64,000 nucleotides of DNA, from the NCBI GenBank assembly GCA_963555825.3, contig CAUVXB020000002.1, positions 2,400,001 to 2,464,000 of the forward strand, given 5' to 3'. This document shows positions 9,065 to 53,143 of the stretch, piece by piece. Positions within the stretch are counted from its first letter, which is position 1, and every line of letters begins with the position of its first letter. Source of the stretch: Alphaproteobacteria bacterium. GTDB taxonomy: Bacteria; Pseudomonadota; Alphaproteobacteria; JAAXGF01. The position numbers and the translations under genes are program-made. The notes beneath the pieces were generated by a model. It worked only from the letters and a program-made list of their open reading frames with translations, made no database searches and was not told the DNA's origin.

Positions 9065-9226
9065 CAGCCTGTGTGAAAACATCGGCAAATACCACTAATT
9101 GGAGAGTGTTAGGTCAATTCTTCTAGAGCACTCTCTGATAAGATGTTGATTTGGCTGAACTTAGAAATTCGAAAATTCAGAGAAAATCGCGCCGAGAGCA
9201 CTCGGGAGCAGTTTTCACACAGTCTG
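9065..9226. mobile_element. Non-autonomous IS1182-derived MITE
   Basis: TIRs cagcctgtgtgaaaac / gttttcacacagtctg nearly identical to those of 5890..7573; same GGTC duplication. Confidence 0.8.
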
Positions 9227-9231
9227 GGTCA

Positions 9232-9478
9232 TGTGTGGACGGCTCCGGTTTGGCAAGGATTGTTTTGAGGTTGCTGCAAGCTGGTCGGGTGCAGTCATGT
9301 GTCCGGCCTGTTGATGCGGTGCTCATGACCGCTGGCCCTAATGCGATCCGCGGGATCGGGTCCCAATCACAAGGACGCGCTTGATGCGCCGTGACCCAAA
9401 CGGGTTTTTCCGACCCTCGGTTCGACCGATTTTGCATTACCTCACGTTCACCCCGCCAATAACGTTGCCTTCGCCGCC
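9232..9478 (-). ncRNA. Putative bridge/seek RNA region of IS1111-type element 1
   Basis: ~250-bp NCR downstream of the recombinase, homologous to 50450-50680, containing segments that match its own junctions; RNA ends not determined. Confidence 0.7.
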
Positions 9479-10507
9479 TTAAACTTCGGCTGGCGCCGGC
9501 TGGCGGTAGGGTTCGCCAGTGACCAGCACCGCCCAGGCGGTTCGGGCAATCTTGTTGGCCAAGGCCACGGCCGCGACCTTGGTCGGTTTTTGACGCACGA
9601 GGTCGCCCAGCCACGGGTTCTTCTCGAAGTTTGTCTTTCGTCCGTGTCGGATCACGGACATGGCGCCGGCGACCAGCAACCACCTGAGATATTGATCGCC
9701 CTGTTTGGATATCCGGCCCATGCGTTGCTTACCTCCGGTCGAGTCCTGTCTGGGCACCAGACCGATCCAGGCGGCCAACTCGCGGCCGGACTTGAAGACC
9801 GAAGGGTCCGACACCGAGGCAACCAGCGCCGTGGCGATAATCGGCCCGATGCCCGGTATGGTCTCGAGCCGCCGGCTGGCCTCGTTCGAACGATGCCAGG
9901 CGTGGATGCGCCGCTCGGCGACGGCGATCTCCTCGTGCAATGACATGAACTGTCTCGCCAGACCTTCGAGGCAGGCTCGCGCGATTGGTGGCAGCCGCTC
10001 ATCGTCGCCATCGGCGATCACCGCAAAGAGCTCTTTCACCCGCGGGATGCCGACCGGCGCGACGATGCCGAACTCGGCCATATGGCCGCGGATCGCGTTG
10101 ACCAGCATGGTCCGCTGACGGACCAGCAGCTCCCGGGTTCGGTGCACCATCAGAACACTCTGCTGCTCAGGCCCCTTCACCGCGACAAACCGCATGGTCG
10201 GCCGCGTCACCGCCTCGCAGATCGCCGCCGCGTCGGCCGCGTCGTTCTTGTTGCGCTTGACATAGGGCTTCACGTAATGCGGTGGCATCAGCTTGACCCG
10301 ATGACCCAACCCGATCAGTTGCCGAGCCCAATGGTGTGCCGTGGCGCAGGCCTCGATGCCAATCAGGCACGGCGGCAGCTTCTCGAAAAACGGCAAGACC
10401 CGGGACCGGCGCAGCTGGCGGCGGATCACCACGGTGCCCTCATCGTCAACTCCGTGGACCTGGAAAACGTTCTTCGCAAGATCAAGACCGATCGTGGTAA
10501 CTTCCAT
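9479..10507 (-). CDS. IS110-family DEDD recombinase
   Basis: IGLDLAKNVFQVHG, IEAC, KNDAADA, GLVPRQDSTGGK. Confidence 0.95.
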   Translation of the reverse strand: MEVTTIGLDLAKNVFQVHGVDDEGTVVIRRQLRRSRVLPFFEKLPPCLIGIEACATAHHWARQLIGLGHRVKLMPPHYVKPYVKRNKNDAADAAAICEAVTRPTMRFVAVKGPEQQSVLMVHRTRELLVRQRTMLVNAIRGHMAEFGIVAPVGIPRVKELFAVIADGDDERLPPIARACLEGLARQFMSLHEEIAVAERRIHAWHRSNEASRRLETIPGIGPIIATALVASVSDPSVFKSGRELAAWIGLVPRQDSTGGKQRMGRISKQGDQYLRWLLVAGAMSVIRHGRKTNFEKNPWLGDLVRQKPTKVAAVALANKIARTAWAVLVTGEPYRQPAPAEV

Positions 10508-10519
10508 CTTGGGCGGCTC

Positions 10520-11970
10520 GGCGATGTCCCGCCCAATGTTGAAAAGTGCGAGATAGGCATCGTCTGATCGAGAGGCTACGCGGCCACCTCGATGTCTTCA
10601 ATGACGGACTTTGCTCCGGCCTTTCTCACCGCCTCCCGCAGGGCGGCGTCAAGGACGGGGAGCTGGCGGTAGGCCTTGAGGCGGCGGAAGGTCTTTTGCG
10701 CCTCCAAGAGGCCGGCGGCGGTCCAACGCAGCGCCATCTCGGCGTTGCGCCAGCGCTTGACGTTCCGCTGCACCGTCCGGACGGTGCCGATCGCGTTCTC
10801 GATGGCGTTGGTGCAAGCCAGCGAGTGTCGAAGTTGCGGCGGGAGGCCGAGCCGGATCACGGTCAGGATATCGTCCAGGCCCTCCAGGATCGAGCCCGAG
10901 ACGCCGGGTGCGTCATGCTCCAGACGGCGGGCGAGGTTGCGCAAGAGCCGTTCGGCCTTGGCCGCGTCGTCCTGCTGCCAGGCCTGCCGCAAGACCTTCC
11001 TGACGCCGGCATGGAGGCTCTCGTCCAGCCGGTCCGTGATGTTGCGCCCCTTGTGCACCTGGCAGCGCTGGAGGGCCGCCGCCCGCCCGAAGGTCCGCCG
11101 GATCGCCTTCGAGAGCGCCTTGGCGCCGTCGACGATGTAGAGCCGAGGCCGTTCGGGATCGAGACCGCGCTCGATCAGGTTGTCGAGCATGGCTTGCACC
11201 GTGGCCGCGTTCTCCGTCGCGCCCTCGGCCAGGCCCAGCACGTGCTTCGCGCCGCCGGTGTCGATGCCGATCGCCGCCACCATCAGGTGATCGCCGACAT
11301 GGAGCCCGTCGATCTGGAGCACCACGAGATCGAGATCGTCGAGCGGGCTCGCCAGCCAGGCCTTCAGCTTGCTTCGCGTCAACGCCACGAAACGGCGCGA
11401 GACCGCCGACTTCGAGGTTGCGTCACCCGATGCCGCCGGCAGATCGCCGCCCGCATCGTCCGGCAGGCGCACCGCGCGGGCATACTTGCGGGTCGAGACG
11501 TTGATCACCATCAGATTCATCGCCCAGGCTTGCAAGAGTTCGGGTTCCGACAGCAGCTCCCAACTCGGCAGGCTCATCTCCCGACCCGCGAAGTCCCGCA
11601 CCCGAGGGCGCTCGACCTTCACTTTGCCGCCGTGGTAGGCGATCTCGCTCCGGGTCGTGCCCCATCGATGGCCCTTGCGCTCGCCCGAGCGGGCGTGGCG
11701 CGAACCGCACAAGGCTTCCGCGTCCGCCGACATCATCTCGTTCAAAGACTCGAGGCCCGCCAAAAGGCAGAAGCGATCGACGCTCATGCGCAGATCGTCG
11801 AAGGCCTCCGGCATCGATGGCAAGAGCCGACAGGATGGTTCCGAGGAACGGTCGTTGCGTGTAGTCTTGGTCATGGCGTCGTTCTCCTTGATGGAATCAG
11901 CACCCAGAGCCTAGCGGCTCCAGGCGGACGACGCCTACTTCAGCTTTTCAACAGAGCCCGGGACATCCCC
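10520..11970 (-). mobile_element. IS256-family insertion sequence
   Basis: TIRs ggcgatgtccc…tgttgaaaag / cttttcaaca…gggacatcccc; 8-bp duplication GGCGGCTC (10512-10519 and 11971-11978). Confidence 0.92.
10576..11874 (-). CDS. IS256-family transposase
   Basis: VSTRKY, QIDG, GATEN, IVDGAKAL, QRCQVHK, TNAIEN. Confidence 0.92.
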   Translation of the reverse strand: MTKTTRNDRSSEPSCRLLPSMPEAFDDLRMSVDRFCLLAGLESLNEMMSADAEALCGSRHARSGERKGHRWGTTRSEIAYHGGKVKVERPRVRDFAGREMSLPSWELLSEPELLQAWAMNLMVINVSTRKYARAVRLPDDAGGDLPAASGDATSKSAVSRRFVALTRSKLKAWLASPLDDLDLVVLQIDGLHVGDHLMVAAIGIDTGGAKHVLGLAEGATENAATVQAMLDNLIERGLDPERPRLYIVDGAKALSKAIRRTFGRAAALQRCQVHKGRNITDRLDESLHAGVRKVLRQAWQQDDAAKAERLLRNLARRLEHDAPGVSGSILEGLDDILTVIRLGLPPQLRHSLACTNAIENAIGTVRTVQRNVKRWRNAEMALRWTAAGLLEAQKTFRRLKAYRQLPVLDAALREAVRKAGAKSVIEDIEVAA

Positions 11971-12049
11971 GGCGGCTCCCCTATTGGCGGTTATCAAACA
12001 ACCTCCATGGCACATTGCGATGCCGGCGGTGGAGCCGTCCACAGCATCA

Positions 12050-12180
12050 CAAGGAGACCTCAAGCGACCTCGTTTTCGATGTCCGGTTCCGAGCAGTGAG
12101 CAGACATAAAACGCCGCAGTTCCGAAATTCGGGTTTCATCGTCCGGTTTGCGGCCCAAAGCCGACCTCGGCAGCTATACC
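12050..12180. repeat. Second cluster of degenerate REP-like palindromes
   Basis: atgtccggttccga…gagcagacat and gtccggtttgcgg…aagccgacc; similar to 7574-7731. Confidence 0.5.
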
Positions 12181-12471
12181 CAAAAAAACCTTCAAATTAG
12201 GCGGATACAAAAACCGGCCATAGCGCTTGTGTACGCGGCGCGGCGTGGGGGGCTGCCGGCACCCGAGCCGGGCCGCCGCCTCAACCTCGCACCGGAATGC
12301 CCCGTCGCGACGCCGTGGAGGCCGTTGGCGCACGGAACAACGTTGCCGGACCTCCCCCTCTCACCTGCTCGAAACGCAGCATGCCGCTATCTATTTGCTA
12401 CCTGGCACGTATTCAAATTTTGCCGGCGCGCATCTCTCTCAGAAATTTTCCAACTAACTCTTTGAAAAGAA

Positions 12472-12558
12472 TGGTGCCCCCAGGGAGACTCGAACTCCCA
12501 CGTCCGTAAGGACAACAGATTTTGAGTCTGCCGCGTCTGCCAATTCCGCCACAGGGGC
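12472..12558 (-). tRNA. tRNA-Leu (CAA)
   Basis: GCCCCTGTGGCGGAATTGGCAGACGCGGCAGACT-CAA-AATCTG…GTTCGAGTC…GGGGGCACCA; long variable arm, encoded CCA. Confidence 0.97.
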
Positions 12559-12695
12559 TCTGGGCCGGGCGCATGATACCCGAGCGCCTCTTGCCGTCAA
12601 GACGGTCGGGCGCTGTCCGATGGTGATTGCCCACGGCGCGGCGCTCGGCTTATATGCGCGGCGCCGGGGCGTGCCCGGCGACGGAGGGCTATGGC

Positions 12696-13277
12696 ATGCT
12701 CAAGCGGTTCTACGACCGGGTGATGGCGCTCGCGGCGCACCGCAACGCCAAGTGGTGGCTGGCGCTGATCTCCTTCGTCGAGAGCTCGATCTTCCCGATC
12801 CCGCCCGACGTCATGCTGATCCCCATGGTGCTGGCGCGGCGGACCGATGCCTGGCGCATCGCCGCGGTCTGCGCGCTGGCCTCGGTGGCCGGCGGCTGCG
12901 CCGGCTACGCCATCGGCTTCTTCCTGTTCGACGCGGTCGGCCGGCCGCTCCTGGAGTTCTACGGCCAGATGGCCGCCTTCGACGAATTCCGCGCCGGCTA
13001 CAACGAGTGGGGCGCGTGGATCGTCTTCGGCGCCGGGATAACGCCCTTCCCCTACAAGGTGATCACCATCGCGAGCGGCGTCACCGGGCTCGATTTCCTG
13101 GTCTTCACGATCGCCTCGCTGCTGGCGCGCGGGCTGCGATTCTTCTTCGTCACGGCCCTGCTGTGGTACTTCGGCGAGCCCATCCGGGGCTTCATCGAGC
13201 GCCACCTGGGCAAGTTGACGGTGCTGTTCTTCGTGCTTCTGCTCGGCGGCTTCGTGATCGTCAAATATATAGTCTAG
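12696..13277 (+). CDS. YqaA/DedA-family membrane protein
   Basis: SFVESSIFPIPPD and TPFPYKV motifs. Confidence 0.9.
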   Translation: MLKRFYDRVMALAAHRNAKWWLALISFVESSIFPIPPDVMLIPMVLARRTDAWRIAAVCALASVAGGCAGYAIGFFLFDAVGRPLLEFYGQMAAFDEFRAGYNEWGAWIVFGAGITPFPYKVITIASGVTGLDFLVFTIASLLARGLRFFFVTALLWYFGEPIRGFIERHLGKLTVLFFVLLLGGFVIVKYIV

Positions 13278-13328
13278 CCGGTGACGGCCAACGTTTCGCG
13301 CCCGCGCACGAGCCGCTAAGCTGGCGCC

Positions 13329-13826
13329 ATGCTGATCAGCCGCACGATCGCCGCCCTTATACTCGCCGCGAGCCTCGGCGCGCTGGCCGGCGCTTTCGTC
13401 GCCGAGACCGTCTTCGACCTCGCGCCCTGCCCGCTTTGCATCTATCAGCGCTGGCCCTATGTCGCCACCGCGCTCTTTGCCGCGCTCGCCATGGCGACCG
13501 CGGCGCGCGGGCGCTGGCCGGCGCTGTTGGTCGGCTTGGCGAGCCTCGTCTTCGCCGGCGAGGCGGCGCTCGCATTCTACCACGTCGGCGTCGAGCAGGG
13601 CTGGTTCGAGGGCCTGGCGGCCTGTGCCGGCGCCGGCGAGACGCCCGCGACACTCGAGGCGCTGCGCGCCCAGCTCCTCGAAGGCCCGCCGCCGCCGCGC
13701 TGCGACGAACCGGCCTGGACGCTGTTCGGCGTCTCGATGGCCGGCTATAACGTGATCTACGCGGCGGCGTTGGCCGGCTTCAGCGGCGCCGCCGCGGTCA
13801 TCATGGCGAAGAGGTCGCGCGCGTGA
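13329..13826 (+). CDS. dsbB: Disulfide bond formation protein B
   Basis: PCPLCIYQRWP, YHVGVE, second Cys pair (C…RCDE). Confidence 0.88.
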   Translation: MLISRTIAALILAASLGALAGAFVAETVFDLAPCPLCIYQRWPYVATALFAALAMATAARGRWPALLVGLASLVFAGEAALAFYHVGVEQGWFEGLAACAGAGETPATLEALRAQLLEGPPPPRCDEPAWTLFGVSMAGYNVIYAAALAGFSGAAAVIMAKRSRA

Positions 13827-14407
13827 CCAACAAATCGAACAAACGGAACGCTCGGCCGACAATGACCGGAGAAGACCGCCTGCCGGGCGACCTGGCACCA
13901 GAGGCGCTGATCGAACGCATGATCCGGGTCGACCACGCCGGTGAGTTCGGCGCCGCGCGCATTTACCAAGGCCAGCTCGCCGTGCTCGGTCGCTCGAAGA
14001 GCGCGGCGACCATCCGCCGCATGGCCGAGCAGGAGCAGCGCCACCTCGCCGCCTTCGACGCACTCGTCGTCGAGCGCCGCGTGCGGCCGACTGCGCTGTC
14101 GCCGTTGTGGCACGCCGCCGGCTTCGCGCTCGGCGCGGCCAGCGCGGCCTTGGGCGAGCGCGCCGCGATGGCCTGCACCGTCGCGGTCGAAGAGGTCATC
14201 GGCGAGCACTACGCCGCCCAGGCCGCCAAACTTGGCGACGACGAGGCCGAGCTGCGCGGCCTGATCGAGGAATTCCGCGCCGACGAAATGGCGCACCGCG
14301 ACACCGGTCTCGCCGAGGGCGCCGAACAGATGACCGGCTACCGGCCCTTCTCGGACGCGATCAAGGCCGGCACCCGCCTCGCCATCTGGCTCTCGGAGCG
14401 GGTTTAG
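13823..14407 (+). CDS. coq7: Demethoxyubiquinone hydroxylase (di-iron)
   Basis: MIRVDHAGEFGAARIYQGQ, EQRH, AMACTVAVEEVI, DEMAH. Confidence 0.93.
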   Translation: MTNKSNKRNARPTMTGEDRLPGDLAPEALIERMIRVDHAGEFGAARIYQGQLAVLGRSKSAATIRRMAEQEQRHLAAFDALVVERRVRPTALSPLWHAAGFALGAASAALGERAAMACTVAVEEVIGEHYAAQAAKLGDDEAELRGLIEEFRADEMAHRDTGLAEGAEQMTGYRPFSDAIKAGTRLAIWLSERV

Positions 14408-14568
14408 GGCCCGATCCAATCAGGCTCGGTCGAAATCTACCAGGCCGCGCCAACCTTATTGGGACAAGAGGGGGCCCGCCGACCGTTCGGCCAGCTTTGA
14501 TTCCATAAGACTGGCATGCGCGGCGATTGAGCGCAGGTCACCTTTAGGTGACCGCACAAAGAACTCTA
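14405..14568 (+). repeat. Structured repeat family A, copy 1
   Basis: Core gggacaagagggggcccgccgaccgttcggc…gattgagcgcaggtcacct-tt-aggtgacc; begins at the coq7 TAG. Confidence 0.85.
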
Positions 14569-14570
14569 TC

Positions 14571-15356
14571 TCACGCGACGCGGCCGTAGAAGGTCTCGCG
14601 GGTATGGGCGTCCAGGACCTTGCCTTCCTCGGGCGAGTATGAGAACACCGCGACGAGCCGCGGCCGCGAGCCGGTCACCGGCGTCACGCGGTGCAGCGTC
14701 CGGCTGCCGCGAAAGACGACCAGCGCGCCGGCCGGCTGGCGCAGCTCCTGGACCTCGCCGGAACGCCCTTCGAGCACGGCGTCGACGACATCGTAGTTCT
14801 CGTCGCCGTCGTCCCGGATGAAGGGCGCAAACTCGAAGCCGGCGCCGTCTTCGGGCGACTGCAGCAGAAGCGTGACGACGAAGGTCGCGACGTCGAAGTG
14901 CCAACCCGTCTGGCAGCCCTCGTTGTAGACCAGGATGTTCATCGGGGCCAGCGCGTCGGCGTAGGGATAGAGCCTGTCGAAGCCGAGCAGCTGGGCCAGG
15001 AAGACTTGGAAAGTCGGCCAGTTATAGAGGCCGTTCAAGACCGAATCGCGCGGAATCCAGTCGTAGGCGAGCGTCGCCGAGTCGGTCGTCTGCTTGCGGT
15101 TGCGCGGATGGTCCGGGCCGAAGGCTTCGTCGTCCTTGATCAGATAGGGGCTGTGGCTCTTGGTCTTGTAAAAGGCGTTGCCGAGATTGGGCTCGACCTC
15201 GGCGACCACGACCGGCAGGCACTCGGGCTTCATGAAGCCCTCGAGCACACAGGCGCCACTCGCCGCGAGGTCCCCGTCACAGCGCTCGAGCAGGCGCCGG
15301 TATGCCTCGCTGCCGGGTTGGTCGATGGGGTAGCGTTCGAGATCGATCGTGTCCAT
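14571..15356 (-). CDS. 2OG-Fe(II) oxygenase (BesD/ArpA-like fold, HxD hydroxylase type)
   Basis: GWHFD…LHRVTPV…R motif set. Confidence 0.8.
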   Translation of the reverse strand: MDTIDLERYPIDQPGSEAYRRLLERCDGDLAASGACVLEGFMKPECLPVVVAEVEPNLGNAFYKTKSHSPYLIKDDEAFGPDHPRNRKQTTDSATLAYDWIPRDSVLNGLYNWPTFQVFLAQLLGFDRLYPYADALAPMNILVYNEGCQTGWHFDVATFVVTLLLQSPEDGAGFEFAPFIRDDGDENYDVVDAVLEGRSGEVQELRQPAGALVVFRGSRTLHRVTPVTGSRPRLVAVFSYSPEEGKVLDAHTRETFYGRVA

Positions 15357-15490
15357 GCCGATAACCCATTTTCAGGGGCCCGGCCCAAGCCGAACCACCG
15401 TGCATTCGATATGCGCGGCGCCCACGGGCGTCCGCTGTCCTCTCTATAGTCGGCCTCAATATAGAGAGCCACAAAGTTTTTCGGCAGGCG

Positions 15491-16402
15491 CTAGTCGTCG
15501 TCGCGGAACGCGGTGACGATCCAGTCGGCGACGGCGCGGCGCTCGGCCGACGGCGCCGCTTCGGGATGGGTGACAAGGTGGAACGCGTGGTCGGGGCGTA
15601 GCCGCGTCTCGCAGGCGCTGACCAGCAGGCCGGTGGCGAGATGGTCCCCGACCAATTGGCGCCAGCCGAGCGCGATGCCCTGACCCTCGACCGCCGCGTT
15701 GACGAGCACCGTGAACGAGTCGGCGCGCAGCGCCGGCCTGGGCGGCGGGCCGGTGACGCCGACGCCGCGCAGCCAAAGCGGCCAGTCGATCCAGTGCCGG
15801 CGCGGCTCGTCGAGGAACAGCAGTCGTTCGCGCAGCAGTGCATCGGGCGTGGCGAACGGCCCGCGCTCGGCCAGATAGGACGGCGCGCAGACCGGGAAGA
15901 CCTCGGTGTGGTCGAGCAGCTCGACGGTGAGGCCGGGCCAGCGGCCGGTGCCGTAGCGAATGCCGATGTCGAAGCGGTCGGCGACGCCGTGCAATTCGAG
16001 GTCGGTCGCCAGCACCTGGACCTCGACGTCGGGGATCGCGGCGCGCAGCCGGCCGAGCCGGGGAATCAGCCAGAGCGACGCGAAGGCCGAGGTCGCCGCG
16101 ATGGTCACGCCGTGGCCCGGCGAGCCGGCGCGAAACGCATCCGCCGCCTCGGCGATCTGGTCGAGCGCCATGGCCACCGTGCGGTGCAGACGCCGGCCTT
16201 CGGCGGTCAGCTCGATCGTCTTGTGGCGGCGGTCGAACAGCGGCGCGCCGAGCGCGTCCTCGAGCAAGCGGATCTGGCGGCTGACGGCGCCCTGGGTGAC
16301 GTTGAGCTCGACCGCCGCGCGCGTGAAGCTGGTCAACCGCCCGGCCGCCTCGAAGAACGCCAGCGCGCCCGGGTTAGGCAGACGCTTTGCGAGCGTTGGC
16401 AT
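15491..16402 (-). CDS. LysR-family regulator (GcvA-like)
   Basis: FEAAGRLTSFTRAAVELNVTQGAVSRQIR HTH; WLIPRL. Confidence 0.92.
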   Translation of the reverse strand: MPTLAKRLPNPGALAFFEAAGRLTSFTRAAVELNVTQGAVSRQIRLLEDALGAPLFDRRHKTIELTAEGRRLHRTVAMALDQIAEAADAFRAGSPGHGVTIAATSAFASLWLIPRLGRLRAAIPDVEVQVLATDLELHGVADRFDIGIRYGTGRWPGLTVELLDHTEVFPVCAPSYLAERGPFATPDALLRERLLFLDEPRRHWIDWPLWLRGVGVTGPPPRPALRADSFTVLVNAAVEGQGIALGWRQLVGDHLATGLLVSACETRLRPDHAFHLVTHPEAAPSAERRAVADWIVTAFRDDD

Positions 16403-16500
16403 TACGAATTCTCATTCATATTCACGAATAAACGTCGTTTGCACCGCATAACGACGAGGAATACCATATTTTTCGTGATGCACCAATGAGGACGGGTCGG

Positions 16501-17691
16501 ATGGAACACTGCCTGACCGCCGCCGAGCTCGACGCCGCGACGCGGCCCATCGCCAGCGCCCGCGGCCTGCCCAACCGCGCCTATACGTCGGCCGACTGGG
16601 CGGCCATGGAACGTGACCAAATGCTCGGCCGCACCTGGACCTGTATCGGCTTCGCCGACGAGGTGCCGGCGCGCCACGCCGTGCCGATCGATTTGCTCGG
16701 CCTACCGCTGGTCGCCGTGCGCGACCCCGACGAGACGGTGCGCGTGTTCCACAACGTCTGCCGCCACCGCGGCCACAAGCTGGTCGGCGGCCCCTGCGCG
16801 CTCAAGTCGGGCTTCGTCTGCCCCTACCACGGCTGGATGTACGGCTTCGACGGCACACTCGAGATGACGCCGCATATCGGCGGCGCCCGGGTCCACGAGG
16901 TCGCCGGCTTCGACAAGGCCGCGCACGGTCTGTTCGCGGTGCGCAGCGCGGTCTGGCTCGGCATGATCTTCGTCAACCTTTCGGGTGACGCGCCCGAGTT
17001 CGCCGCATTCATCGCGCCGCTGATCGGGCGCTGGGCGCCGTTTACCGGGCCGGACGGGATGGCTGGGCTGGTCGCCGCCGCGCCGGTCGCCGGCAGCGAC
17101 CTCGAGGTCCGCGCCAACTGGAAGCTCGCGGTCGAGAACTTCTGCGAGAGCTATCACCTGCCCAACATCCATCCGGGCCTGAACGGCTATTCCAAGATGT
17201 CCGACCATTACAACATCATGGCCGGCGACTGGGGCGCCGGCCAGGGCTGCACCGCCTTCGACTACGGCGCGCGCTCGGGCCTCGCCTTCCCGCCGTTCGC
17301 CGACTGGCCCGAGGACAAGCGCAGCCACGCCGAGTACATCACGCTGTTCCCCAACGTACTGTTGGGCCTGCACCTCGACCACGTCTTCGCCATGGTGCTG
17401 AGGCCGCTCGCCCACGACCGCACCGTCGAGGCGACGCGGCTCTATTTCATCGGCGAGGCGGCGACCGACACGGCCCAAGAAAATGCCCGCGCGACATTGC
17501 TCGCGGACTGGCTCGAGATCTTCGTCGAGGACATCGGCGTGGTCGAGGGCATGCAACAGGGCCGCGCCTCGCCGGCCTATGACGGCGGCGCGTTCTCGCC
17601 GTTCCACGAGGAGGCGACCCACCACTTCCACGGCTGGGTGGCGCGCCGCGTCGCCGGCGGGCCACGGGCGGCGGAGACCAAGGTCGCGTAG
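16501..17691 (+). CDS. Rieske oxygenase alpha subunit (choline/betaine monooxygenase-like)
   Basis: CRH…CPYH Rieske motif; NWK…ENFCESYH…IH mononuclear Fe site; ED…MQQGR. Confidence 0.88.
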   Translation: MEHCLTAAELDAATRPIASARGLPNRAYTSADWAAMERDQMLGRTWTCIGFADEVPARHAVPIDLLGLPLVAVRDPDETVRVFHNVCRHRGHKLVGGPCALKSGFVCPYHGWMYGFDGTLEMTPHIGGARVHEVAGFDKAAHGLFAVRSAVWLGMIFVNLSGDAPEFAAFIAPLIGRWAPFTGPDGMAGLVAAAPVAGSDLEVRANWKLAVENFCESYHLPNIHPGLNGYSKMSDHYNIMAGDWGAGQGCTAFDYGARSGLAFPPFADWPEDKRSHAEYITLFPNVLLGLHLDHVFAMVLRPLAHDRTVEATRLYFIGEAATDTAQENARATLLADWLEIFVEDIGVVEGMQQGRASPAYDGGAFSPFHEEATHHFHGWVARRVAGGPRAAETKVA

Positions 17692-17717
17692 GTTCGGGTC
17701 GGCGCGCATTCACGCCA

Positions 17718-17915
17718 TAGAGCCGAATCCGATCGATTGAGTACGGCCGAAATCTACCAGCCCGCGCCAGTCTTAATGGGACAAGAGGGGGGCCGCCGAC
17801 CGTTCGGCCAATCCTTATGGGATCAAGACTGTCCATATGGGATAAAGATTGGCATGCGCGGCGATTGAGCGCAGGTCATCTTTGCGTGAGCCAAAGATGA
17901 CCGAAAAATGATCTA
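17718..17915 (+). repeat. Structured repeat family A, copy 2 (internal duplication)
   Basis: Same core; ends at the HNH gene stop codon. Confidence 0.85.
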
Positions 17916-18479: not shown

Positions 18480-18578
18480 GCCCCGTAACCCTTTCTGCGA
18501 ACACAAAAATACACACCGGCTGTGACGGATCAAGGGCAAAGAGCAGGCGCGGCCCGGGGCGGCGGCCCACCGATCGGC

Positions 18579-19421: not shown

Positions 19422-19549
19422 CTCGGCGTGGCGGGTCTGAACGAAATAGCGAACATTTTTGCCGCCCCCGGCCACTCGGCGATTCCCATTCGGGCCCGGC
19501 TGTGGCAGTTTGGCACGGCGCGGAAGCACGCAAACAGTTGCTACACCAG

Positions 19550-39355: not shown

Positions 39356-39362
39356 GTAAGCG

Positions 39363-44606: not shown

Positions 44607-44818
44607 GGCTTCCTTCGCCCCCCTGGGACCGCGCGGACCGGCCGACGCGGCCCCCGCTTATAGCCGCTGAGCGGTTCGTTATCGACCGGGAATCGCCCCC
44701 CCGCCGCCGCGGCCCGGCTGTTACCCCTTGTCCCCAGCGATCTTATGGGCGATATTTGGGGCAAGGCGTGCTAAGGACAAGCGTCGTGGAGGACGAAACA
44801 ATTACCGCGCACACCGAA

Positions 44819-45808
44819 ATGATTGATCCGTTCGGCCGGCCGATTTCCTATCTCAGGGTTTCGGTGACCGACCGTTGCGACTTCCGCTGCGTCTACTGCA
44901 TGTCCGAGGACATGACCTTCCTGCCCAAGGCCGACCTGCTGACGCTCGAGGAACTCGACCGGCTGTGCAGCGCCTTCATCGGCCTCGGCGTGCGCAAGAT
45001 CCGGCTGACCGGCGGCGAGCCGCTGGTGCGGCGCAACCTGATGTGGCTCGTCGAGAGCCTGGGGCGCCACCTCGAGAGCGGCGCGCTCGACGAGCTGACG
45101 CTGACCACCAACGGCAGCCAACTGGCGCGCTTCGCCGACCAACTCTATGGCGCTGGCGTGCGCCGCGTGAACGTCTCGCTCGATACGCTGGATGCCGACA
45201 AGTTCCGCGCCATCACCCGCTGGGGCCGCTTCGATCAGGTCATGGGCGGCATCGCCGCGGGCCAGGCCGCCGGCCTCAAAATCAAGATCAACACGGTCGC
45301 GCTCAAGGGCGTCAACGAGGACGAACTCGACACCCTGGTTTCGTGGTGCGGCGCCGAGGGTCACGACCTGACGCTGATCGAGACCATGCCGATGGGCGAC
45401 ATCGATGGCGACCGGACCGAACAGTACCTGCCGCTCTCGGTGGTCCGCGCGCGCCTGCAGGAACGCTGGACGCTGACCGACATCGATTACAAAACCGGCG
45501 GCCCGGCGCGCTACACGGCGGTCGGCGAGACCGGCCAGCGGCTCGGCTTCATCACGCCGCTGACCCATAATTTCTGCGAATCGTGCAACCGCGTGCGGCT
45601 GACCTGCACCGGCATGCTCTACATGTGCCTTGGCCAGGACGACTCGGCCGACCTGCGCGCGCCGCTGCGCGCCAGCGAATCGGACGACGCGCTGATCGAC
45701 GCCATCCACGAGGCGATCGGCCGCAAACCCAAGGGCCACGACTTCATCATCGACCGCCGCCACGACCGCCCCGCCGTCGCGCGCCACATGAGCGTCACCG
45801 GCGGCTGA
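44819..45808 (+). CDS. moaA: GTP 3',8-cyclase
   Basis: [23 protein letters not shown]…C, C-terminal GG. Confidence 0.96.
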
Positions 45809-45949
45809 ACGACGGGCGCGCGGCGCCATGTATATCCGCTACATCACCTACGGCGGCAGATAGACGCGGACGATCGGCCCGCGACCCTCTGGGCGCGATG
45901 GCGCGCAACTGTTATATCTGCGCCGGACATCGGCGAAGGAGTGCCTGCG

Positions 45950-46568
45950 ATGCCACGCGCGACAGCCCGCGTCGACGACGCCGCGACGATCACCGGGGCA
46001 GTGCTCGAATTCTGGTTCGAGCGCGATATCGCGCCCGGCTATTGCGAGGTCCGGCCGGTGTGGTTCGAGAGCACGCCGGAATTCGACGCCGAGATCGCCG
46101 AGCAATTCGTGTCGACCTTACGAGCAGGCAGCGGCCGGCGCGCTCGATTACATGGCCGGCGCGGCCGAGAGCTGCCTCGCGCTGACCATCGTGCTCGATC
46201 AGTTCCCGCGCTGCATGTTCCGCGGCGACGCGCGGACCTACGCGACCGACGACAAGGTGCTGGCGCTCGCCAAACGGGCCATCGCGTGCGGCTTCGATGC
46301 GGCGCTGACGCCGCTGCAACGCTGGTTCCTCTACATGCCGTTCCAGCACGTCGAGGACCGTGCCGACCAACGCCGCTCGGTCGAATTGTTCGAGAGCCTG
46401 GGCGCCGACGCGGTGCACCGCTTCGTCATCGGCGCGGCGCGCAGCCACCGCGACGTCGTCGAGCGTTTCGGGCGCTTTCCGCATCGCAATGATATTCTGG
46501 GCCGCGTAACGACCGCTGAGGAGGCGGCGTTCCTGACCAGTCCGGGGGGGCGTTTTTGGCTCGCATGA
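45950..46568 (+). pseudogene. DUF924-family protein, one-base frameshift near 46117
   Basis: VLEFWF…FDAEI then LDQFPR…FLYMPFQH…FGRFPHRN in the next frame. Confidence 0.8.
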
Positions 46569-47412
46569 CCGAGGTTGACACGACGACGCGGCGCAAGGAC
46601 TGGGAAAGGTCGGCCACCGCCTGGGACGCCTGGTTCGACGTCATCGAACGCGCCACCCAACCGGTCAGCCAGCGCATGGTTGAGATGGCAGGCATCGGCC
46701 CCGGCAGTCGGGTGCTCGACTCGCCACCGGGACCGGCGAGCCGGCGGTGACCGCGGCGCGCCGGATCGCGCCCGACGGCCACGTCGTCGCGACCGACATC
46801 AGCCCGTCGATGATCGCCGGCGCCGAACGGCGTGCCGAGAATCTTGGCGTCGCCAACATCACCTTCCGCGCCGTCGCCGCCGAGGCGCTCGACGAACCGC
46901 CGGCGAGCTTCGATGCGGCGCTATGCCGCTGGGGCCTGATGTTTATGCCCGACATCGACGGCGCGCTCCGGCACATGAAAGACCTGATCCGCGACGGCGG
47001 CCGGTTCGTCGCCGCGGCCTGGGCCGAGCCATCGGACGTTCCCGCACTGAGCATCGATCGCCGCGTGCTTGTACCCTATTTCGACGGCGGCCACTTCGCC
47101 CATGGCTTTGACTACTTGAACGCGTTCCGTTTCGCCACGCCGGGCCTGCTCGAAGAGGTTCTTGCGGCCGCTGGATTCGGCGACGTCGCCTGCGAGCGCG
47201 TCACCGTTGTCTACGAGTTTCCGTCGGCAGCCGATTTCGTCCGCTTCCGGCGTGAAGTCTCAAGGATCGGCGCCGACATGGCCGAACGTCACCCGGCAGT
47301 CGTGGTCGAGGCAGCCTGGGACGCCGTGGCGGAAGCCGCCAGAGCGTACGCCGACACCGAGGGACGCATCCGAATGGAGAACGCGGCCCTTTGCGCTGTT
47401 GGCAGTCGCTGA
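46565..47412 (+). pseudogene. Class I SAM methyltransferase, frameshift near 46720
   Basis: RVLD|xATGTGEP motif split across frames; TDISPSM, FDAALCRWGLMF. Confidence 0.8.
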
Positions 47413-47449
47413 GAGTGCCATCCCAAGCACCAAGGGAGGTCACACACCG

Positions 47450-48199
47450 ATGAGTGAATTCGAGGGCAGGACGGCGGTCATCACGGGCGCGAGCCGCGGC
47501 ATCGGCCGCGACATCGCGCTCGGCCTGGGCGCGGCGGGCGCCAATGTCGTGGTCAATTATGTGGCGTCCGGCGAGGCTGCGGCGGCGGTCGCCGATGAAA
47601 TCCACGCGGCGGGCGGAGACGCGATCCCGTACCAGGCCGACGTCTCGCAATTCGCCGACGTCGCGCGCATGATGGCCGCCGCGCTGGACGCCTTCGGCAG
47701 GATCGACATCCTGGTCAACAACGCCGGCATCAACGCGGACGGACCGCTGCTCGAGCTCGCCGAGGCCGACTGGGACGCCGTCGTCGGCGTCAATCTCAAG
47801 GGCGCCTTCCTCTGCACCCAAGCCGCCGGCCGCGCGATGACCGCGGCCGGGCGCGGCCACATCGTCAACATCTCGGCGTTCACCGGGATCGATGCGCGCC
47901 AGGGCGCCGCCAACTACTGCGTCTCGAAGGCGGGCCTCAACATGCTGACCCGATGCGCGGCGCTCGAGCTCGCGCCCGCCGTTCGCGTCAACGGCCTGGC
48001 GCTCGGCTTCATCCGCAGCACGCTCGTCGAGGACGTGTTCAGCGCGAAACAGATCGCCGCCGTCGTCGACCAGACGCCGCTGGCGCGCTTGGGCGAATTC
48101 GAGGAGGTAACCGCGGCCGTCAAGTTCCTCGCCTCCGACGCATCGTCGTTCATCACCGGCCAGACGATCGTCATCGACGGCGGCCGGATCATGCGCTAG
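47450..48199 (+). CDS. SDR oxidoreductase (FabG-like)
   Basis: TGASRGIG, NNAG, YCVSK. Confidence 0.9.
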   Translation: MSEFEGRTAVITGASRGIGRDIALGLGAAGANVVVNYVASGEAAAAVADEIHAAGGDAIPYQADVSQFADVARMMAAALDAFGRIDILVNNAGINADGPLLELAEADWDAVVGVNLKGAFLCTQAAGRAMTAAGRGHIVNISAFTGIDARQGAANYCVSKAGLNMLTRCAALELAPAVRVNGLALGFIRSTLVEDVFSAKQIAAVVDQTPLARLGEFEEVTAAVKFLASDASSFITGQTIVIDGGRIMR

Positions 48200-48226
48200 C
48201 CCGGCCTAACAGGAACGGATGGAACC

Positions 48227-49231
48227 ATGACGACCGACCAACAGGCGGCGCCGAGCCGCGCGCCGATCGACCGGCACCTGAACGCCATGTACCCGGCAGT
48301 GGCGATGCTGGCGACGGTTCGGCTCGACGTCTTCACGCCGCTCGCCGACGGCCCGATGGACGCCGATCGGCTCGGCCGGGCGCTCGATCTCGGGGCCGAC
48401 AAGCTCTAACCGTTGCTCTACGCGCTGGTCATCGCCGAGCTGCTCACCGTCGCGGACGGCCGGTTCGCCAACACGGCGGCCGCCGATCATTATCTGGTGC
48501 GCGGCCGACCGGGCTATATCGGCGGCGGCCGGCGATTGCAGACCGACATCTGGCACACCGACCTCCGCACCGCCGAGACGATCCTGAGCGGCGCGCCCAA
48601 CGCCAGACTCGACTTTGCCGGCGTATCCGAGGCCGAACTGATGGACTTCTTCCGCGCCGAGCACGGCGGCGCGTTGGCCGAGGGCCGCGCGCTCGCCGAG
48701 GCGCTCGATCTCTGCCGGCACGACCGCCTGCTCGACGTTGCCGGTGGCTCGGGCGGGCTCGCGATCGGCGCCTGCGAGGCCTGCCCAAGTTTGCGCGCGA
48801 CCGTCGCCGACCTGCCTGCCGTCGTGCCGCTGACGCGGCGTTTCATTGCCGAGGCCGGCCTGGCCGAGCGGATCGACGCGCACGCCACCGACCTAATCGC
48901 GGATCCACCGGACGGCAGCTACGACATCGCCGTGCTGCGCAACTTCATCCAGGTCATTTCGCGCGACCAGGCGCGCCGGGCGTTGCGTCACATCGGCCAG
49001 GCGCTGGCGCCGGGCGGCGAAATCTGCATCGCGGGCTGGGTGCTCGACGATTCGGGCCTCGCGCCGCTCGAGATCGCGACCTCGAACTACGCCTTCCTCA
49101 ACGTCTACGACGAGGGCCGCGCCTATACCGAGGCCGAGCACCGCGACTGGCTCGCCGCGGCCGGATTCACCGACGTCGAACGCCACCTCGTCGCCGGCGG
49201 CAAGAGCCTGGTGACCGCGCGCAAGGCGTGA
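48227..49231 (+). pseudogene. O-methyltransferase with dimerisation domain, in-frame TAA at 48407-48409
   Basis: …ADKL*PLLYAL…LLDVAGGSG…DLP. Confidence 0.8.
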
Positions 49232-49697
49232 GCCAGATCGGCGACCGCTGGTCGTGTCTCAGTTTGAAATTCAGTCGAAACAACGCCCGGAACGTCGGCT
49301 GTTCAGCGGATCATGTCTGCGTTGCACGCGACAGCAGACCTTGGCGCGCGGTCATCGGCACAGCCGCTTTTGACCCGGAGCGGACTTTCATGGTGTTGGA
49401 CGCCAAGTCGATGCCATCAAACAAATTTCGAGCACGATGGGGAGTTTTTCCGTCACCTGCTGGTGTTGTCATCGATCGCCTCTCGCTCTATCATCGTCGG
49501 TAACCAGGAGGAATCATTCCGACTATCCTGGATAAATTTCCGCGTCGGGATAGGTCAGAGCATCGACCAGATTTTCCGAGTGGGCAATCAATTCCGTTGT
49601 GGACAGTGTGTATCGTCCCGGACCTTTGGGCTCGGCCCGCCGGTGGTGTGCTGGTGGCCGCCGGTGTGACTGGCATCGGCTAACGTAGGGGGCTCAC

Positions 49698-50267
49698 ATG
49701 AACAAGCTTTTGACCATGATTTCCGCCGTGGCGCTACTCACGGCCATCGCGGGTTCGGCATACGCCGACCAACATGAAAAGACCGTTTTCATCACGAGTT
49801 CGACCTTCAAGGGCAACCTAGGCGGGCTCGCGGGAGCCGACGACAAGTGCCAGGCGGAGGCGGACGGCCCGGCATCAATCGTTCCTTCCGGCACTTACTT
49901 GGCTTGGCTATCCGATGGAACCGACAGCCCCGATACCCGCTTCACCAAGTCTGCCCATCCTTACATGCTGCCCGATGGAACGAAGATCGCCGAAAATTAT
50001 ACCGATCTAACGGACGTATCCATCCTACACGCAATCACCATCGACTCCACCGGCAAAGCCCTCGGGCAACAACCGTTCTGGACGGGCACAAAGGCCGATG
50101 GCACAACCGCGCCACTATCCGTGACATGCACCGGGTGGAAGGACCCTTTACCTTATCATCATGGAATGCACGGGCAGACAAATAGGACGAACTCATCCTG
50201 GTCCACAATGCACTCTAACGATTCGTGCCGCAACAGATCCGCCCCTTTACTGTGCTTCCAGCAATAA
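49698..50267 (+). CDS. Secreted DUF1554/endostatin-lectin-like protein
   Basis: Signal peptide; VFITS…GNLGGLAGADDKCQ…AWLS…WTG…LLCFQQ. Confidence 0.7.
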   Translation: MNKLLTMISAVALLTAIAGSAYADQHEKTVFITSSTFKGNLGGLAGADDKCQAEADGPASIVPSGTYLAWLSDGTDSPDTRFTKSAHPYMLPDGTKIAENYTDLTDVSILHAITIDSTGKALGQQPFWTGTKADGTTAPLSVTCTGWKDPLPYHHGMHGQTNRTNSSWSTMHSNDSCRNRSAPLLCFQQ

Positions 50268-50449
50268 GGGACGGTCGCTTCCGGGATTTTTCCATACGCA
50301 GTGAGCCCGGCACCTCGTTGACCGCCTTGACCGCTTTCCTCAGCCGTCAGCGCGTCGACGCGAGCGCCAGGATGTCGTCCATGAATCTGTTGTAGAACAG
50401 GCCGGACCTCGCCATCCGCTGACACCGCGCTAACTTCTCCTATTGGCTA

Positions 50450-50685
50450 TGTGTGGACGGCCCCGATTTGGCAAGGGTTGTTTTGACGGTCATGCAAGTT
50501 GGTCGGGTGCGGCTATGTGTTCGGCCCGTTTGCGCGATACGACGATCGCTGGCCCTAATGCGATCCGCGGATCGGGTCCCAGTTATAAGCACGAGCTCAG
50601 TGGCTCCGTAGCCAAGACGGGTTTCTCCGATCCCCGGTGTTCGACCGGTCTTGCATTACCTCACGATCACCCTGCCAAAAGGGTT
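50450..50685 (-). ncRNA. Putative bridge/seek RNA region of element 2
   Basis: Colinear with 9232-9478; variable segments track the junction sequence. Confidence 0.7.
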
Positions 50686-50690
50686 TAATA

Positions 50691-51861
50691 CCAGTGAGCC
50701 TATGAAATCGCCTTCATGATCCATGGATAGGCGCAGAGGGTTCGCATACGATCCGGTTCTGCGATGAGGTCGATCCATGCTTGGCAACAGGCGTCGATGA
50801 TGGCCTCGGTGTCGTCGAGGACGCGGAGCGATAGGAAGCGTTCGCGTAGGTAGAGCCAAACCCGCTCGACGGGGTTGAGTTCGGGACTGTAAGGCGGCAA
50901 CAGCGCCAAGGTGACGTTGTCGGGGACGGTGAGGGCGCGCTCGTCGTGCCAACCGGCGCCGTCGCACATCATGACGGCGTGCGCATCCTGGTCCAGGGTA
51001 TCGGCGAAGTGTGCGAGAAACAGGTCCATGACCTTGGCGTTGACGCTCGGCATCACCAGGGTGACGTCGTCGCCGGTGTCCGGGCGCACGGCGGAGAAGA
51101 TGTAGGCCCACTGGTAGCCGATTTGACGCGTCCCGGGGGCACGCTCGCCCCTGCGCCACCACCGGTGACACACCCGGCCCTTGTTGCCGACGCGCGCTTC
51201 ATCCTGAAACCACAGCTGTAGGCGCTTGTCGGGATGCGCCGCGGCGGTCGCCTTCAGGATGTCGCGAAGCCCCCTTTTTTGAAGCGCTCCTGCGCTTCGG
51301 CGTCCCTTCGCGGGTGGCTCGGGCGCGCCTTCTGGCGGGAAAATCCCATCCGCCGTAGAACCCGGGTCATGCTCGAGGGGTGGTAGGTCTTGGCGAAGCG
51401 CTCCTCCAGCCAGCGGCACAGATCGGCCCGGGTCCAGGCGCAAACCCCGTCGCGCTCAGGCTCCGGCCCGGCGATGATGACCGCCGCCAGCGCCGCTTCC
51501 TCGTCTGCCGTCAGCCGCCGCGGCGAGTAGCCCTTTGGACGGTCGTGAAGCCCCTCCAATCCCTTTGCATTGTAACGAACAACCGCGTCGCGAAGCGTTT
51601 GGCGATCCATCCCCGCAAGCCGCGCGGCATCAGCCCGGGGCATCTCCTCCAAAGCATTCGCGATCCCATAGGCCCGCGCCGCCGCTCGACCGTACGATTC
51701 CACGCGAGCCCAGCGCCGAAGCTCCAAAGGCGTCAAATCATCCCGTATCTTGAGTGCTGATCCCATGACATCCCCCACATCTGGTGGGAGACCATAGAAT
51801 CACAATCCGCCATCATCCGCCATCAATGAATATCCCGAGAGTCAATTCAGGCGCTCACTGG
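50691..51861 (-). mobile_element. IS630-family element; transposase in two ORFs (51766 to 50700) joined by a probable -1 frameshift
   Basis: TIRs ccagtgagc / gctcactgg with TA duplication; AAAAAAG at 51274-51280; FQDEAR, DGAGWH, PPYSPELNPVE. Confidence 0.9.
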
Positions 51862-51876
51862 TATAAGACGTCTGCC

Positions 51877-52908
51877 TCAAGCGGCGGTGACCGCTGGCTG
51901 ACGGTAGGTTCCACCATTGGCGAGCAGCGCCCAGGCGGTTCGTGCGTTCTTGTTGGCCAGCGCCACGGCGGCGAGCTTGGTCGGTTTGCGCGCCACGAGA
52001 TCGCCCAGCCAAGGCCGTTTGGCGAAGTTCGTTCTTCGCCCGTGGCGTATCACCGTCATGGCGCCGGCGACGAGCAGCCATCGCAGGTAGTGGTCGCCCG
52101 CCTTTGAGATGCGCCCGAGCCGCTGCTTGCCGCCGGTCGATATCTGTCTGGGCACCAGACCGATCCAAGCCGCCAGTTCACGCCCCGATCTGAACACCGA
52201 AGGGTCGGCGATCGAGGCCGCCAGCGCACTCGCCGTGAGCGGTCCGATGCCGGGAATGGTCGCCAGACGTTGGCTGACCTGGTTCGCCCGATGCCAGGCA
52301 TGAATGCGCTGCTCGGTGATGGTGATCTCGCGCTCCAGCGACAGCAACTGCCGCGCCAGTCCTTCCAGGCATGTTCGTGCCAATGGCGGGATGCGTTCAT
52401 CGCCCTCATCAGCGATGACCGCGAGGAGTTCCTTCACCTGCGGCAGCCCGACCCGGGCGACGACCCCGAACTCCGCCATGTGCGCGCGGATCGCGTTGAC
52501 CAGCATGGTCCGCTGCCGAACCAGGAGTTCGCGCGTCCGGTGGTCCATCAACACGCTCTGCTGCGCGGCCGTCTTGACCGCCACGAAACGCATCGATGGC
52601 CGCGTTACCGCTTCGCAGATCGCTTCGGCATCCGCCGCGTCGTTCTTGTTGCGCTTGACGTAGGGCTTCACGTAAGCCGCCGGCATGATGCGCACCTCAT
52701 GGCCAAGCGCCCCGAGTTCCCGCGCCCAATGGTGCGACGTCGCGCAGGCCTCGATACCGACCAGACAAGCCGGCTGCTTGCTGAAGAACGGCACAACCTG
52801 GCGGCGCCTCAGTTGCCGGCGGATCACGGTCTCGCCTGAGACATCGACCCCGTGAACCTGGAAAACGTTCTTCGCAAGATCAAGTCCGATCGTGTTAACC
52901 TCGGTCAT
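51877..52908 (-). CDS. IS110-family DEDD recombinase
   Basis: IGLDLAKNVFQVHG…KNDAADAEAI…GLVPRQISTGGK; close homologue of 9479..10507. Confidence 0.95.
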   Translation of the reverse strand: MTEVNTIGLDLAKNVFQVHGVDVSGETVIRRQLRRRQVVPFFSKQPACLVGIEACATSHHWARELGALGHEVRIMPAAYVKPYVKRNKNDAADAEAICEAVTRPSMRFVAVKTAAQQSVLMDHRTRELLVRQRTMLVNAIRAHMAEFGVVARVGLPQVKELLAVIADEGDERIPPLARTCLEGLARQLLSLEREITITEQRIHAWHRANQVSQRLATIPGIGPLTASALAASIADPSVFRSGRELAAWIGLVPRQISTGGKQRLGRISKAGDHYLRWLLVAGAMTVIRHGRRTNFAKRPWLGDLVARKPTKLAAVALANKNARTAWALLANGGTYRQPAVTAA

Positions 52909-53143
52909 AGGACGGCTCCTTTGTAAGTGATCAGCCAACAGCTACCACTTCTGGCACCTAGATGCCGCGTGGGGCCGTCCACCCCATTACACCTGGACTC
53001 GATGGCTGCACCGGAACGATGACCGCTTTCGGACGATCGGCCGACATACCAGTCCGCTTCGTGCTTTCGAGCCACGTCAAATTTCAAACCGAGGCACTAT
53101 CCGCGCGCTTGGCCTGGCGGCGATTTCGCGCCATATTGGCGTC

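Follow-up and report, generated by a model that had tools for sequence, protein, structure and literature searches.

Two IS1111-group elements from one alphaproteobacterial genome carry different predicted guides and core dinucleotides on a common RNA scaffold

Two interrupted IS1111-group elements lie in the window

The stretch of DNA analysed here, called the window below, comprises 64,000 nucleotides (nt) from the genome of an Alphaproteobacteria bacterium (assembly GCA_963555825.3, contig CAUVXB020000002.1, positions 2,400,001 to 2,464,000; G000:C2:2400001-2464000 in our numbering). It contains two insertion sequence (IS) elements, element 1 at 9230-12049 and element 2 at 50448-52989, each with a non-coding region predicted to encode the seekRNA, or bridge RNA, that guides insertion. 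Both elements lie on the minus strand, and the RNA is the reverse complement of the plus-strand strings quoted in an initial annotation of this DNA. That annotation lacked the strand, a fourth guide block in each element (9339-9344 and 50556-50561) and the nested IS256- and IS630-family elements described below.

Both elements can be assigned to the IS1111 group of the IS110 family. Their transposases match PF01548 (DEDD_Tnp_IS110, RuvC-like) with E values of 3.6e-13 and 1.1e-12, a match at the level of the domain, and the C-terminal domain PF02371 with E values of 5.7e-28 and 1.4e-27. A GLVPRQ..TG motif is present in the two translations (GLVPRQDSTG and GLVPRQISTG) and fits the motif GL-P----(S/T)G as given in PMC11187229. 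A phmmer search against solved structures gave distant matches only, to ISCro4 (E 4e-9) and IS621 (E 4e-8), and these covered the C-terminal domain alone. Read in the orientation of the transposase, each element consists of a short left end with a 12-base-pair (bp) subterminal repeat, the gene, a non-coding region of ~240 nt and the matching repeat. The subterminal inverted repeats are located 5 nt inside the left end and 3 nt inside the right end (gtggacggctcc and ggagccgtccac in element 1, gtggacggcccc and ggggccgtccac in element 2), a layout also described for IS1111 elements in PMC11187229 and PMC11208160.

In element 1, the core of the right junction (9230-9231; CA as read on the plus strand and TG in the orientation of the transposase) is followed by the right end and the 3′ non-coding region (9232-9478, 247 nt, with the subterminal repeat included), predicted to encode the guide RNA. 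The transposase gene (9479-10507) is an open frame of 342 amino acids with both domains, and the left end, made up of leader and subterminal repeat, extends over 11971-12049, with the core CA at 12048-12049. Between leader and gene lies an IS256-family element (10520-11970, minus strand) with a Mutator-type transposase at 10576-11874 and an 8-bp target duplication, ggcggctc, at 10512-10519 and 11971-11978. It was inserted 5-13 nt before the start codon, which takes away the likely ribosome-binding site of element 1. The uninterrupted leader is known from A_1505k, a sibling copy in the same genome, and from contigs of RNA libraries (with loose ends at 10519 in X15 and X18).

In element 2, the right-junction core TA (50448-50449) precedes the right end and the predicted RNA-encoding region (50450-50688, about 240 nt). 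The transposase gene (51877-52908) encodes 343 amino acids from the ATG at 52908 and again contains PF01548 and PF02371; the left end, with leader and subterminal repeat, lies at 52909-52989, with the core TA at 52988-52989. An IS630-family element (~50689-51865, minus strand, with frames at 50700-51443 and 51254-51778) interrupts element 2 at a TA that follows the transposase stop codon and precedes the non-coding region. The same TA is occupied by an IS630-family element in three of the five copies of this type in the genome (element 2, B_527k and B_1067k); that in B_1067k has the opposite orientation, and the hits are therefore repeated insertions at one site.

Four predicted guide blocks match the element ends and flanks

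Each non-coding region contains four blocks that can be read against the junctions. In element 1, the predicted left donor guide with a 2-nt extension (9294-9302; RNA acacaUGac) equals the tip of the right end, the core and the right flank's first 2 nt. The right donor guide (9339-9344; RNA gcauua) is complementary to the core and to ATGC at the left end; core position 2 would form a U.G pair. The left target guide, also with a 2-nt extension (9366-9375; RNA uccuugUGau), equals the left flank and core followed by the left end's first 2 nt, and the right target guide (9392-9400; RNA uuugggucA) is complementary to the core and right flank, TGACCCA. Element 1 thus appears to be programmed for tccttg-TG-accca, and it sits in such a site.

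The corresponding blocks of element 2 are a left donor guide with extension (50512-50520; RNA acacaUAgc), a right donor guide (50556-50561; RNA gcauua) that would form Watson-Crick pairs with the TA core and mismatches nucleotide 4 of the left end (ATGG), a left target guide with extension (50582-50590; RNA gcuuaUAac) that misfits its own left flank and includes an 8-nt patch unlike all four siblings, and a right target guide (50609-50616; RNA cuuggcUA) complementary to TAGCCAAG, where the flank reads TAGCCAAT. All four blocks and both junctions of element 2 have UA or TA at the core; element 1 has UG or CA in the aligned places, with its right donor block, which reads UA, taken up below.

The strings on which the initial annotation had based its proposal are all in place, namely CA (9230-9231 and 12048-12049), gtcatgtgt (9294-9302), atcacaagga (9366-9375) and tgaccca (9392-9398) in element 1, and TA (50448-50449 and 52988-52989), ggctatgtgt (50511-50520), ttataagc (50583-50590) and tagccaa (50609-50615) in element 2.

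Target guides track the flanks across relatives

The genome contains six near-identical copies of one group of relatives (group A), four further copies of the element 2 type (group B) with remnants, and a more distant group C. The transposases of elements 1 and 2 are ~78% identical, their left ends differ, and each has closer siblings elsewhere in the genome. The initial annotation had regarded them as a natural reprogramming pair on one scaffold; given these distances the two do not form a direct pair. A scan of one genome per species yielded a further 80 loci with transposases 50-75% identical. From these and seven loci of this genome, we aligned the 78 of 87 non-coding regions that have a recognisable right end, leaving out L003, L021, L028, L043, L046, L053, L059, L072 and L077. 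The scaffold aligned well across the 78 regions, and the variable columns were exactly the guide blocks.

For the comparison with the flanks we used the 7 nt beside the core in the 70 regions that have both flanks in full length, or 58 elements once identical guide pairs had been merged; on the right side a register shift of 0-2 nt was allowed, in the controls as well. The mean score of a guide against its own flank was 4.60 of 7 on the left, where two stem-like outermost positions dilute the scores, and 5.53 on the right, compared with 2.04 and 3.00 against the flank of another element. Summed over the elements, the own score reached 588 versus a mean of 297 after permutation (standard deviation 14, maximum 360), and none of 5000 permutations scored as high. 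Guides therefore track their own flanks across relatives, the left block of element 2 being an exception. This comparison with the flanks of further copies, proposed in the initial annotation as a check, supports its view that the segments, which match their own junctions and vary with the flanks over 58 elements, are guide blocks of an IS1111-type seekRNA or bridge RNA.

Element 1 scored 6/7 on both sides, and element 2 scored 1/7 on the left and 6/7 on the right. Since mismatched guide-flank pairs seldom reach a score of at least 6 (31/3306 on the left and 75/3306 on the right), the 6/7 matches exceed chance. Scores of 3 or less on either side were found for element 2, A_2096k, B_1014k, L004, L009, L018, L020, L023, L026, L029 and L057. 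The right guide of element 1 is shared by L002, L007 and L024, whose flanks are TGACCC, TGACCC and AGACCC. The tracking extends to single nucleotides: B_527k and B_1067k have caugGCUA as right guide where element 2 has cuugGCUA, a difference of 1 nt, and their flanks are exactly TAGCCATG. In the RNA-library contig X15, with one differing letter, a right end of the element 1 type is joined to a different flank and thus marks a second insertion site; in transposase orientation this flank is TGACCCAAAGCGG and matches the guide at 9/9 positions. A genome search with the four predicted 14-nt targets gave no exact match; at up to two mismatches it returned mostly unrelated coding sequence and few matches in repeat families.

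The non-coding regions share a structure in which the guides are unpaired

The structure alignment comprised 57 regions, the two of the window and 55 of 64 distinct relatives. Nine relatives were omitted, of which L009 has an internal deletion, L061 and L066 end just past the right end, and L020, L029, L032, L038, L039 and L054 contain an extra ~25 nt in the donor region. RNAalifold predicted an internal loop closed by stems of 7 and 3 bp with a 4-bp hairpin within the loop, and a GGCC/GGCC stem around a 5-bp hairpin. In the target loop, the right target guide occupies the 5′ side and the left target guide the 3′ side; in the donor region, the GGCC stem has the right donor guide on its 5′ side and the left donor guide on its 3′ side. 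All four blocks are unpaired. The initial annotation had named a location within paired stems as evidence that would speak against its proposal, and both the fold of the 57 regions and the covariation place the segments outside the stems.

We counted 31 pairs, these being the RNAalifold pairs with one 5′ hairpin and two further closing pairs added. Over these pairs, 91.1% of cells were paired, compared with 25.2-39.4% when the 3′ partners were slid by 1-3 columns. The covariation score was 0.310 versus 0.137 (standard deviation 0.007) after shuffling, with 0/500 shuffles as high, and 18 of the 31 pairs had changes on both sides. The added 5′ hairpin was the weakest helix (71% paired). The non-coding regions contain a conserved secondary structure with unpaired programmable loops. 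We also considered gcatca, 3′ of the donor hairpin of element 1, as right donor guide, and rejected it because its gcat belongs to a conserved stem and does not track the left end.

Donor guides follow the ends, and the core changes coherently from TG to TA

The left donor guide agrees in its 5 nt with the tip of the right end in all 57 regions, and the tip variants cacaca, cataca and cacata each occur with a matching guide. The core within this guide equals the junction core in 51/57, and the 2 nt after it agree with the first two of the right flank at both positions in 36 regions, at one in 16 and at neither in 5. The right donor guide tracks nucleotide 4 of the left end, be it C, G, T or A, in 52/54 cases, with element 2 and L011 as exceptions. 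In all group-B copies an ATGG left end is combined with an ATGC-type right donor guide (52983-52987 and 50556-50561 in element 2), and this combination suggests that the non-coding region and the left end of group B come from different lineages.

The core of the right donor block is UA throughout the clade with ATGC ends, element 1 included; it would form a U.G pair with a TG core and Watson-Crick pairs with a TA core. Of the 57 aligned regions, only that of element 2 shows TA throughout, at the junction as well as in each of the four blocks. In L080 the junction and three blocks have TA, and the remaining block reads ...gcgcua in the alignment; the other four group-B copies, which are outside the 57, have TA junctions too. 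In L001 (1787-1997) the left target guide alone has TA, the other blocks and both junctions having TG, and this may represent an intermediate in the core change. The difference in core that the initial annotation had noticed, CA versus TA on the plus strand, is TG versus TA in transposase orientation and is coherent over the four blocks of element 2. The change is real and not unique to the window, with partial states elsewhere.

Target sites and the left flank of element 2

Both elements are inserted in dispersed repeats. Insertion was site-specific, with no target duplication past the core: empty paralogous sites contain a single core, and siblings reuse the same positions of a repeat family. 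For element 1, the empty site at 1747409 on the minus strand of C2 reads gaggtcTCCGTGTGACCCAGggtgtgtaaaaactgc, with one TG at the insertion point. The repeat in question (~230 nt; window positions 9080-9231 and 12048-12130) has 11 or more copies; in at least six places a gene for a different IS110-family transposase (30-34% identical) is found no more than a few hundred nt from a copy, and another member is interrupted by a group-C copy a few nt away. It looks like a shared landing pad.

For element 2, the initial annotation had noted that the left flank fits the guide poorly, and had suggested off-target insertion or later rearrangement. The poor fit stands (1/7), and we examined 12 copies of the left-flank repeat. 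A group-B element occupies the same point in three of them (element 2, B_527k and B_1067k). Among the nine others, h3078 (gggcgTAgccaaga), h2388 and h2019 read uninterrupted through ...gggNgTAgcc(a/g)...; h2616 has gggtgTAagc and C1_381 has gggtgGAgcc; h2722 and h3616 have gggatTAacc, with a group-C element 12 nt further; h206 has kept only ...CAgccaa..., and h2724 has no likeness at the site. As the flanks are contiguous in the uninterrupted paralogues, the two flanks of element 2 belong together, and rearrangement is unsupported; the left flank fits instead the left guide of four siblings.

The left guide is gugGGUUUAgu in these four siblings and gugCUUAUAac in element 2. Compared with its closest sibling, B_1014k, element 2 differs in 12 of 244 columns, four of them at the 5′ edge by the IS630 site, five in one 8-nt block and three elsewhere. 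The left flanks fall into two classes. In the first, ccgggta-TA (B_527k and B_1067k) and ccgggat-TA (B_1018k) each fit the sibling guide gggtt at 4/5 positions, and ccaggtg-TA of element 2 fits it at 3/5. In the second, ctgctca-TA (B_1014k) and ccgctta-TA (a remnant with a left end only, C2:594729) fit the gctta of element 2 at 4/5 and 5/5. Group B would accordingly comprise two specificities, with element 2 and B_1014k each carrying a guide that fits the site of the other.

Two explanations account for this pattern about equally well. In the one we hold at close to an even chance, element 2 entered its site with the sibling guide gggtt-TA, which was later replaced by gctta-TA through gene conversion of a short patch or through selected substitutions. 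The packing of five of the 12 differences into one 8-nt block points in this direction, as do the retention of gggtt-TA-gt in all four siblings and the patch itself, which equals the left guide of group A but for core nucleotide 2. Conversion between copies is moreover evidenced by A_1505k (G000:C2:1504947-1506305), a chimera of an element 1-type left end (identical over 83 nt) and gene start (~66 nt) with a group-A body that has no mismatch between positions 195 and 1406 of the extract, through the right end; judging from this composite, sequence exchange between copies demonstrably occurs in this genome. On the other hand, a conversion tract of at most 17 nt would be unusually short, a group-A donor would bring TG rather than TA, and besides element 2 itself no gctta-TA donor was found in the genome.

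Alternatively, and with a probability that we consider appreciable though below even, the seekRNA of a sibling inserted element 2 or its circle in trans, and copies that share ends and the TA core would use guides from one mixed pool. The misfit runs both ways: B_1014k has gggtt-TA as its guide and sits at gctca-TA-gccgagg, the remnant at C2:594729 sits at a site that fits the guide of element 2 throughout, and element 2, with its gctta-TA guide, occupies the site class of B_527k, B_1067k and B_1018k. In the assays of PMC11187229, the seekRNA is supplied apart from the mini IS that is moved. The pattern comprises six insertions only, two conversion events would give an identical one, and donor flanks had to match the seekRNA in PMC11187229, which would limit mixing to copies whose flanks fit some guide. 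By the same requirement element 2 would not be movable by its own RNA from its present site, the nested IS aside.

Off-target insertion by element 2's own guide, or a later rearrangement that exchanged the left flank, is unlikely. The 1/7 fit of its own left guide would agree with either, and the many IS copies of the genome could recombine, but three of the nine paralogues free of group B (h3078, h2388 and h2019) run through the site, and three other B copies occupy the same position of the same repeat class.

RNA guides or DNA-level features

Taken together, these results make it very probable that both are IS1111-group elements with a DEDD-type recombinase and a ~240-nt seekRNA/bridge RNA region that guides insertion. 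The sequences themselves establish the anatomy of the elements and the covariation within the structure, of guides with flanks and of guides with ends. By analogy with published work on relatives, the RNA would be produced, bind the recombinase and direct recombination. Read on the transposase strand, the non-coding region would form an RNA with two programmable regions. The 5′ side of the target loop would base-pair with the core and right flank on the top strand; the 3′ side, identical to the left flank and core, would pair with the bottom strand. In the donor multi-loop, the 5′ block would be complementary to the core together with the left end's first 4 nt, and the 3′ block would correspond to the tip of the right end and the core, followed by 2 nt that track the right flank. 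The complex of recombinase and RNA would then pair the circular IS junction with a matching target, and strands would be exchanged at the core dinucleotide. Element 2 would have entered a ...gggtg-TA-gccaa... repeat fitting the left guide of its siblings, and its present left guide would reflect either a patch replaced after insertion or a sibling RNA acting in trans.

That the internal matches are instead features of the DNA itself, for instance captured flank or copies of the ends that bind protein, is very improbable: the left donor block does resemble an internal copy of the right end (ggccggacaca versus gccgtccacaca), but two blocks match host flanks outside the element, one of them as reverse complement, the blocks change with the flank in 58 elements at fixed positions of a scaffold with compensatory stem changes, and the RNA has been demonstrated experimentally in relatives (PMC11187229 and PMC11208160).

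Several observations weigh against an RNA-guided reading of the window elements. Each is broken by another IS, and both may therefore be inactive. The left guide of element 2 does not fit its own flank, its 5′ donor block mismatches nucleotide 4 of the left end, and both flanks of A_1505k fit the guides of element 1 and not its own. A gathering-threshold scan of the whole window with Rfam 15, whose coverage of IS1111-type RNAs was not checked, detected only a transfer RNA (tRNA) and neither non-coding region. Single-sequence folds of the two regions surpassed shuffles only weakly, with z scores of -2.6 and -1.9, and paired part of the right target guide, and were not used. A scan of 9200-9560 for sigma-70 promoters found none, and two terminator-like matches in the same interval turned out to be the inner hairpins of the RNA scaffold. 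Finally, positions 9253-9456 are covered, at 95-99% likeness, by contigs from two marine-sediment RNA libraries of one study; this is a weak hint of transcription, as the contigs come from mixed communities, lack strand, ends and level, and may include DNA.

Relation to known RNA-guided systems

No new mechanism is involved, and the window elements belong to the known RNA-guided IS1111 kind. PMC11187229 (Siddiquee et al. 2024) already describes how RNA guides IS1111 elements to their targets, where the target matches lie and in which order, and natural re-direction in ISEc11 and ISXne4; large-scale covariation of guides and DNA is published in PMC11208160 (Durrant et al. 2024). The former places the top-strand match of IS1111 seekRNAs 5′ of the bottom-strand match; the latter predicts bridge RNAs for 93% of IS1111 elements, located in the right end and often with the donor nucleotides in a multi-loop, which agrees with the donor blocks here.

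Like ISEc11 and ISXne4, the window elements have a 3′ non-coding region, a transposase of 330-350 amino acids, subterminal repeats and two short target matches in the order just given, and their re-direction exchanges target-matching bases while the stems are conserved. In contrast to that pair, the relatives studied here reside in one genome, their specificities differ in steps down to one nucleotide, the core differs by lineage (TG versus TA), and guide and flank are scrambled in some copies, all of which is known here from sequence alone. The IS621 bridge RNA (PMC11208160; 8wt6) is alike in having programmable target and donor regions, each with a bottom-strand and a top-strand block that meet at a 2-nt core, and in the covariation of guide and DNA among orthologues. 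Unlike in IS621, the RNA of the window elements would be encoded in the right end and not the left, the blocks come in reverse order, the subterminal repeats are long, and the donor blocks surround the GGCC stem in a multi-loop instead of occupying a simple internal loop.

A further comparison is offered by ISPpu9 (PMC12288879) and ISPpu10 (bioRxiv 10.64898/2026.03.19.712850), IS110 elements of Pseudomonas putida that target repetitive extragenic palindromic (REP) sequences. They share with the window elements the insertion in dispersed intergenic repeats, the presence of several copies per genome and the occurrence of element modules apart from the whole element. The repeat families differ, and the small RNA downstream of ISPpu9 is reported to be dispensable for transposition, whereas the downstream region of the window elements has clear guide blocks. 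In the passages of the literature that we covered, we found no account of a TG-to-TA core change among closely related IS1111 elements, of a donor block that tolerates wobble pairs or of arrays of right ends, and we make no claim of novelty for them.

For a system that now serves as a genome-writing tool, the elements provide a clean set of natural data, with four guide specificities on near-identical scaffolds within one genome. It includes a single-nucleotide guide variant with tracking flanks, a coherent change of core in four blocks and copies in which guide and site are decoupled, and bears on the freedom of the core to vary, on the tolerance of donor guides to wobble pairs and on guides acting in trans.

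Right-end arrays and other observations

Tandem arrays follow four of the six group-A copies, and were also found at L038 and L048 among the 80 relatives. Their units end in the right end and TG, and begin directly after an internal TG of the element, either the core of the left target guide or of the left donor guide, one of three other TGs of the non-coding region, or a TG at the 3′ end of the gene. At L081:1165-3150 (G000:C2:2096500-2099800) and L082 (G000:C1:169400-171500) the units are 296, 138, ~94-98, 66 and 24 nt long, with the 296-nt unit repeated 3.3 times, the 138-nt unit 2.2 times and the 24-nt unit 10.6 times at L081. The noisiest of the short units could be assembly errors. Such arrays would be explained by recombination of the right end with half-sites that the element carries in its guide-coding DNA. 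According to a preprint (10.1101/2025.10.25.684509), tandem cargo repeats arise as rare by-products when an IS110 recombinase acts. A wider scenario, which we regard as possible but doubtful, is that guide-coding DNA, being a recombination substrate because it necessarily holds half-sites identical to target and donor, builds the arrays, that a shared pool of guides together with short-patch exchange shuffles specificities, and that a donor guide tolerant of U.G pairs lets the core go from TG to TA block by block.

The group-C copies (transposase 57% identical; e.g. G000:C2 1573122-1574491) have AG at the left junction and GG or AG at the right, and the two junction cores of one copy can differ. 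A tRNA gene is located on the minus strand at 12475-12558, ~425 nt past the left end of element 1.

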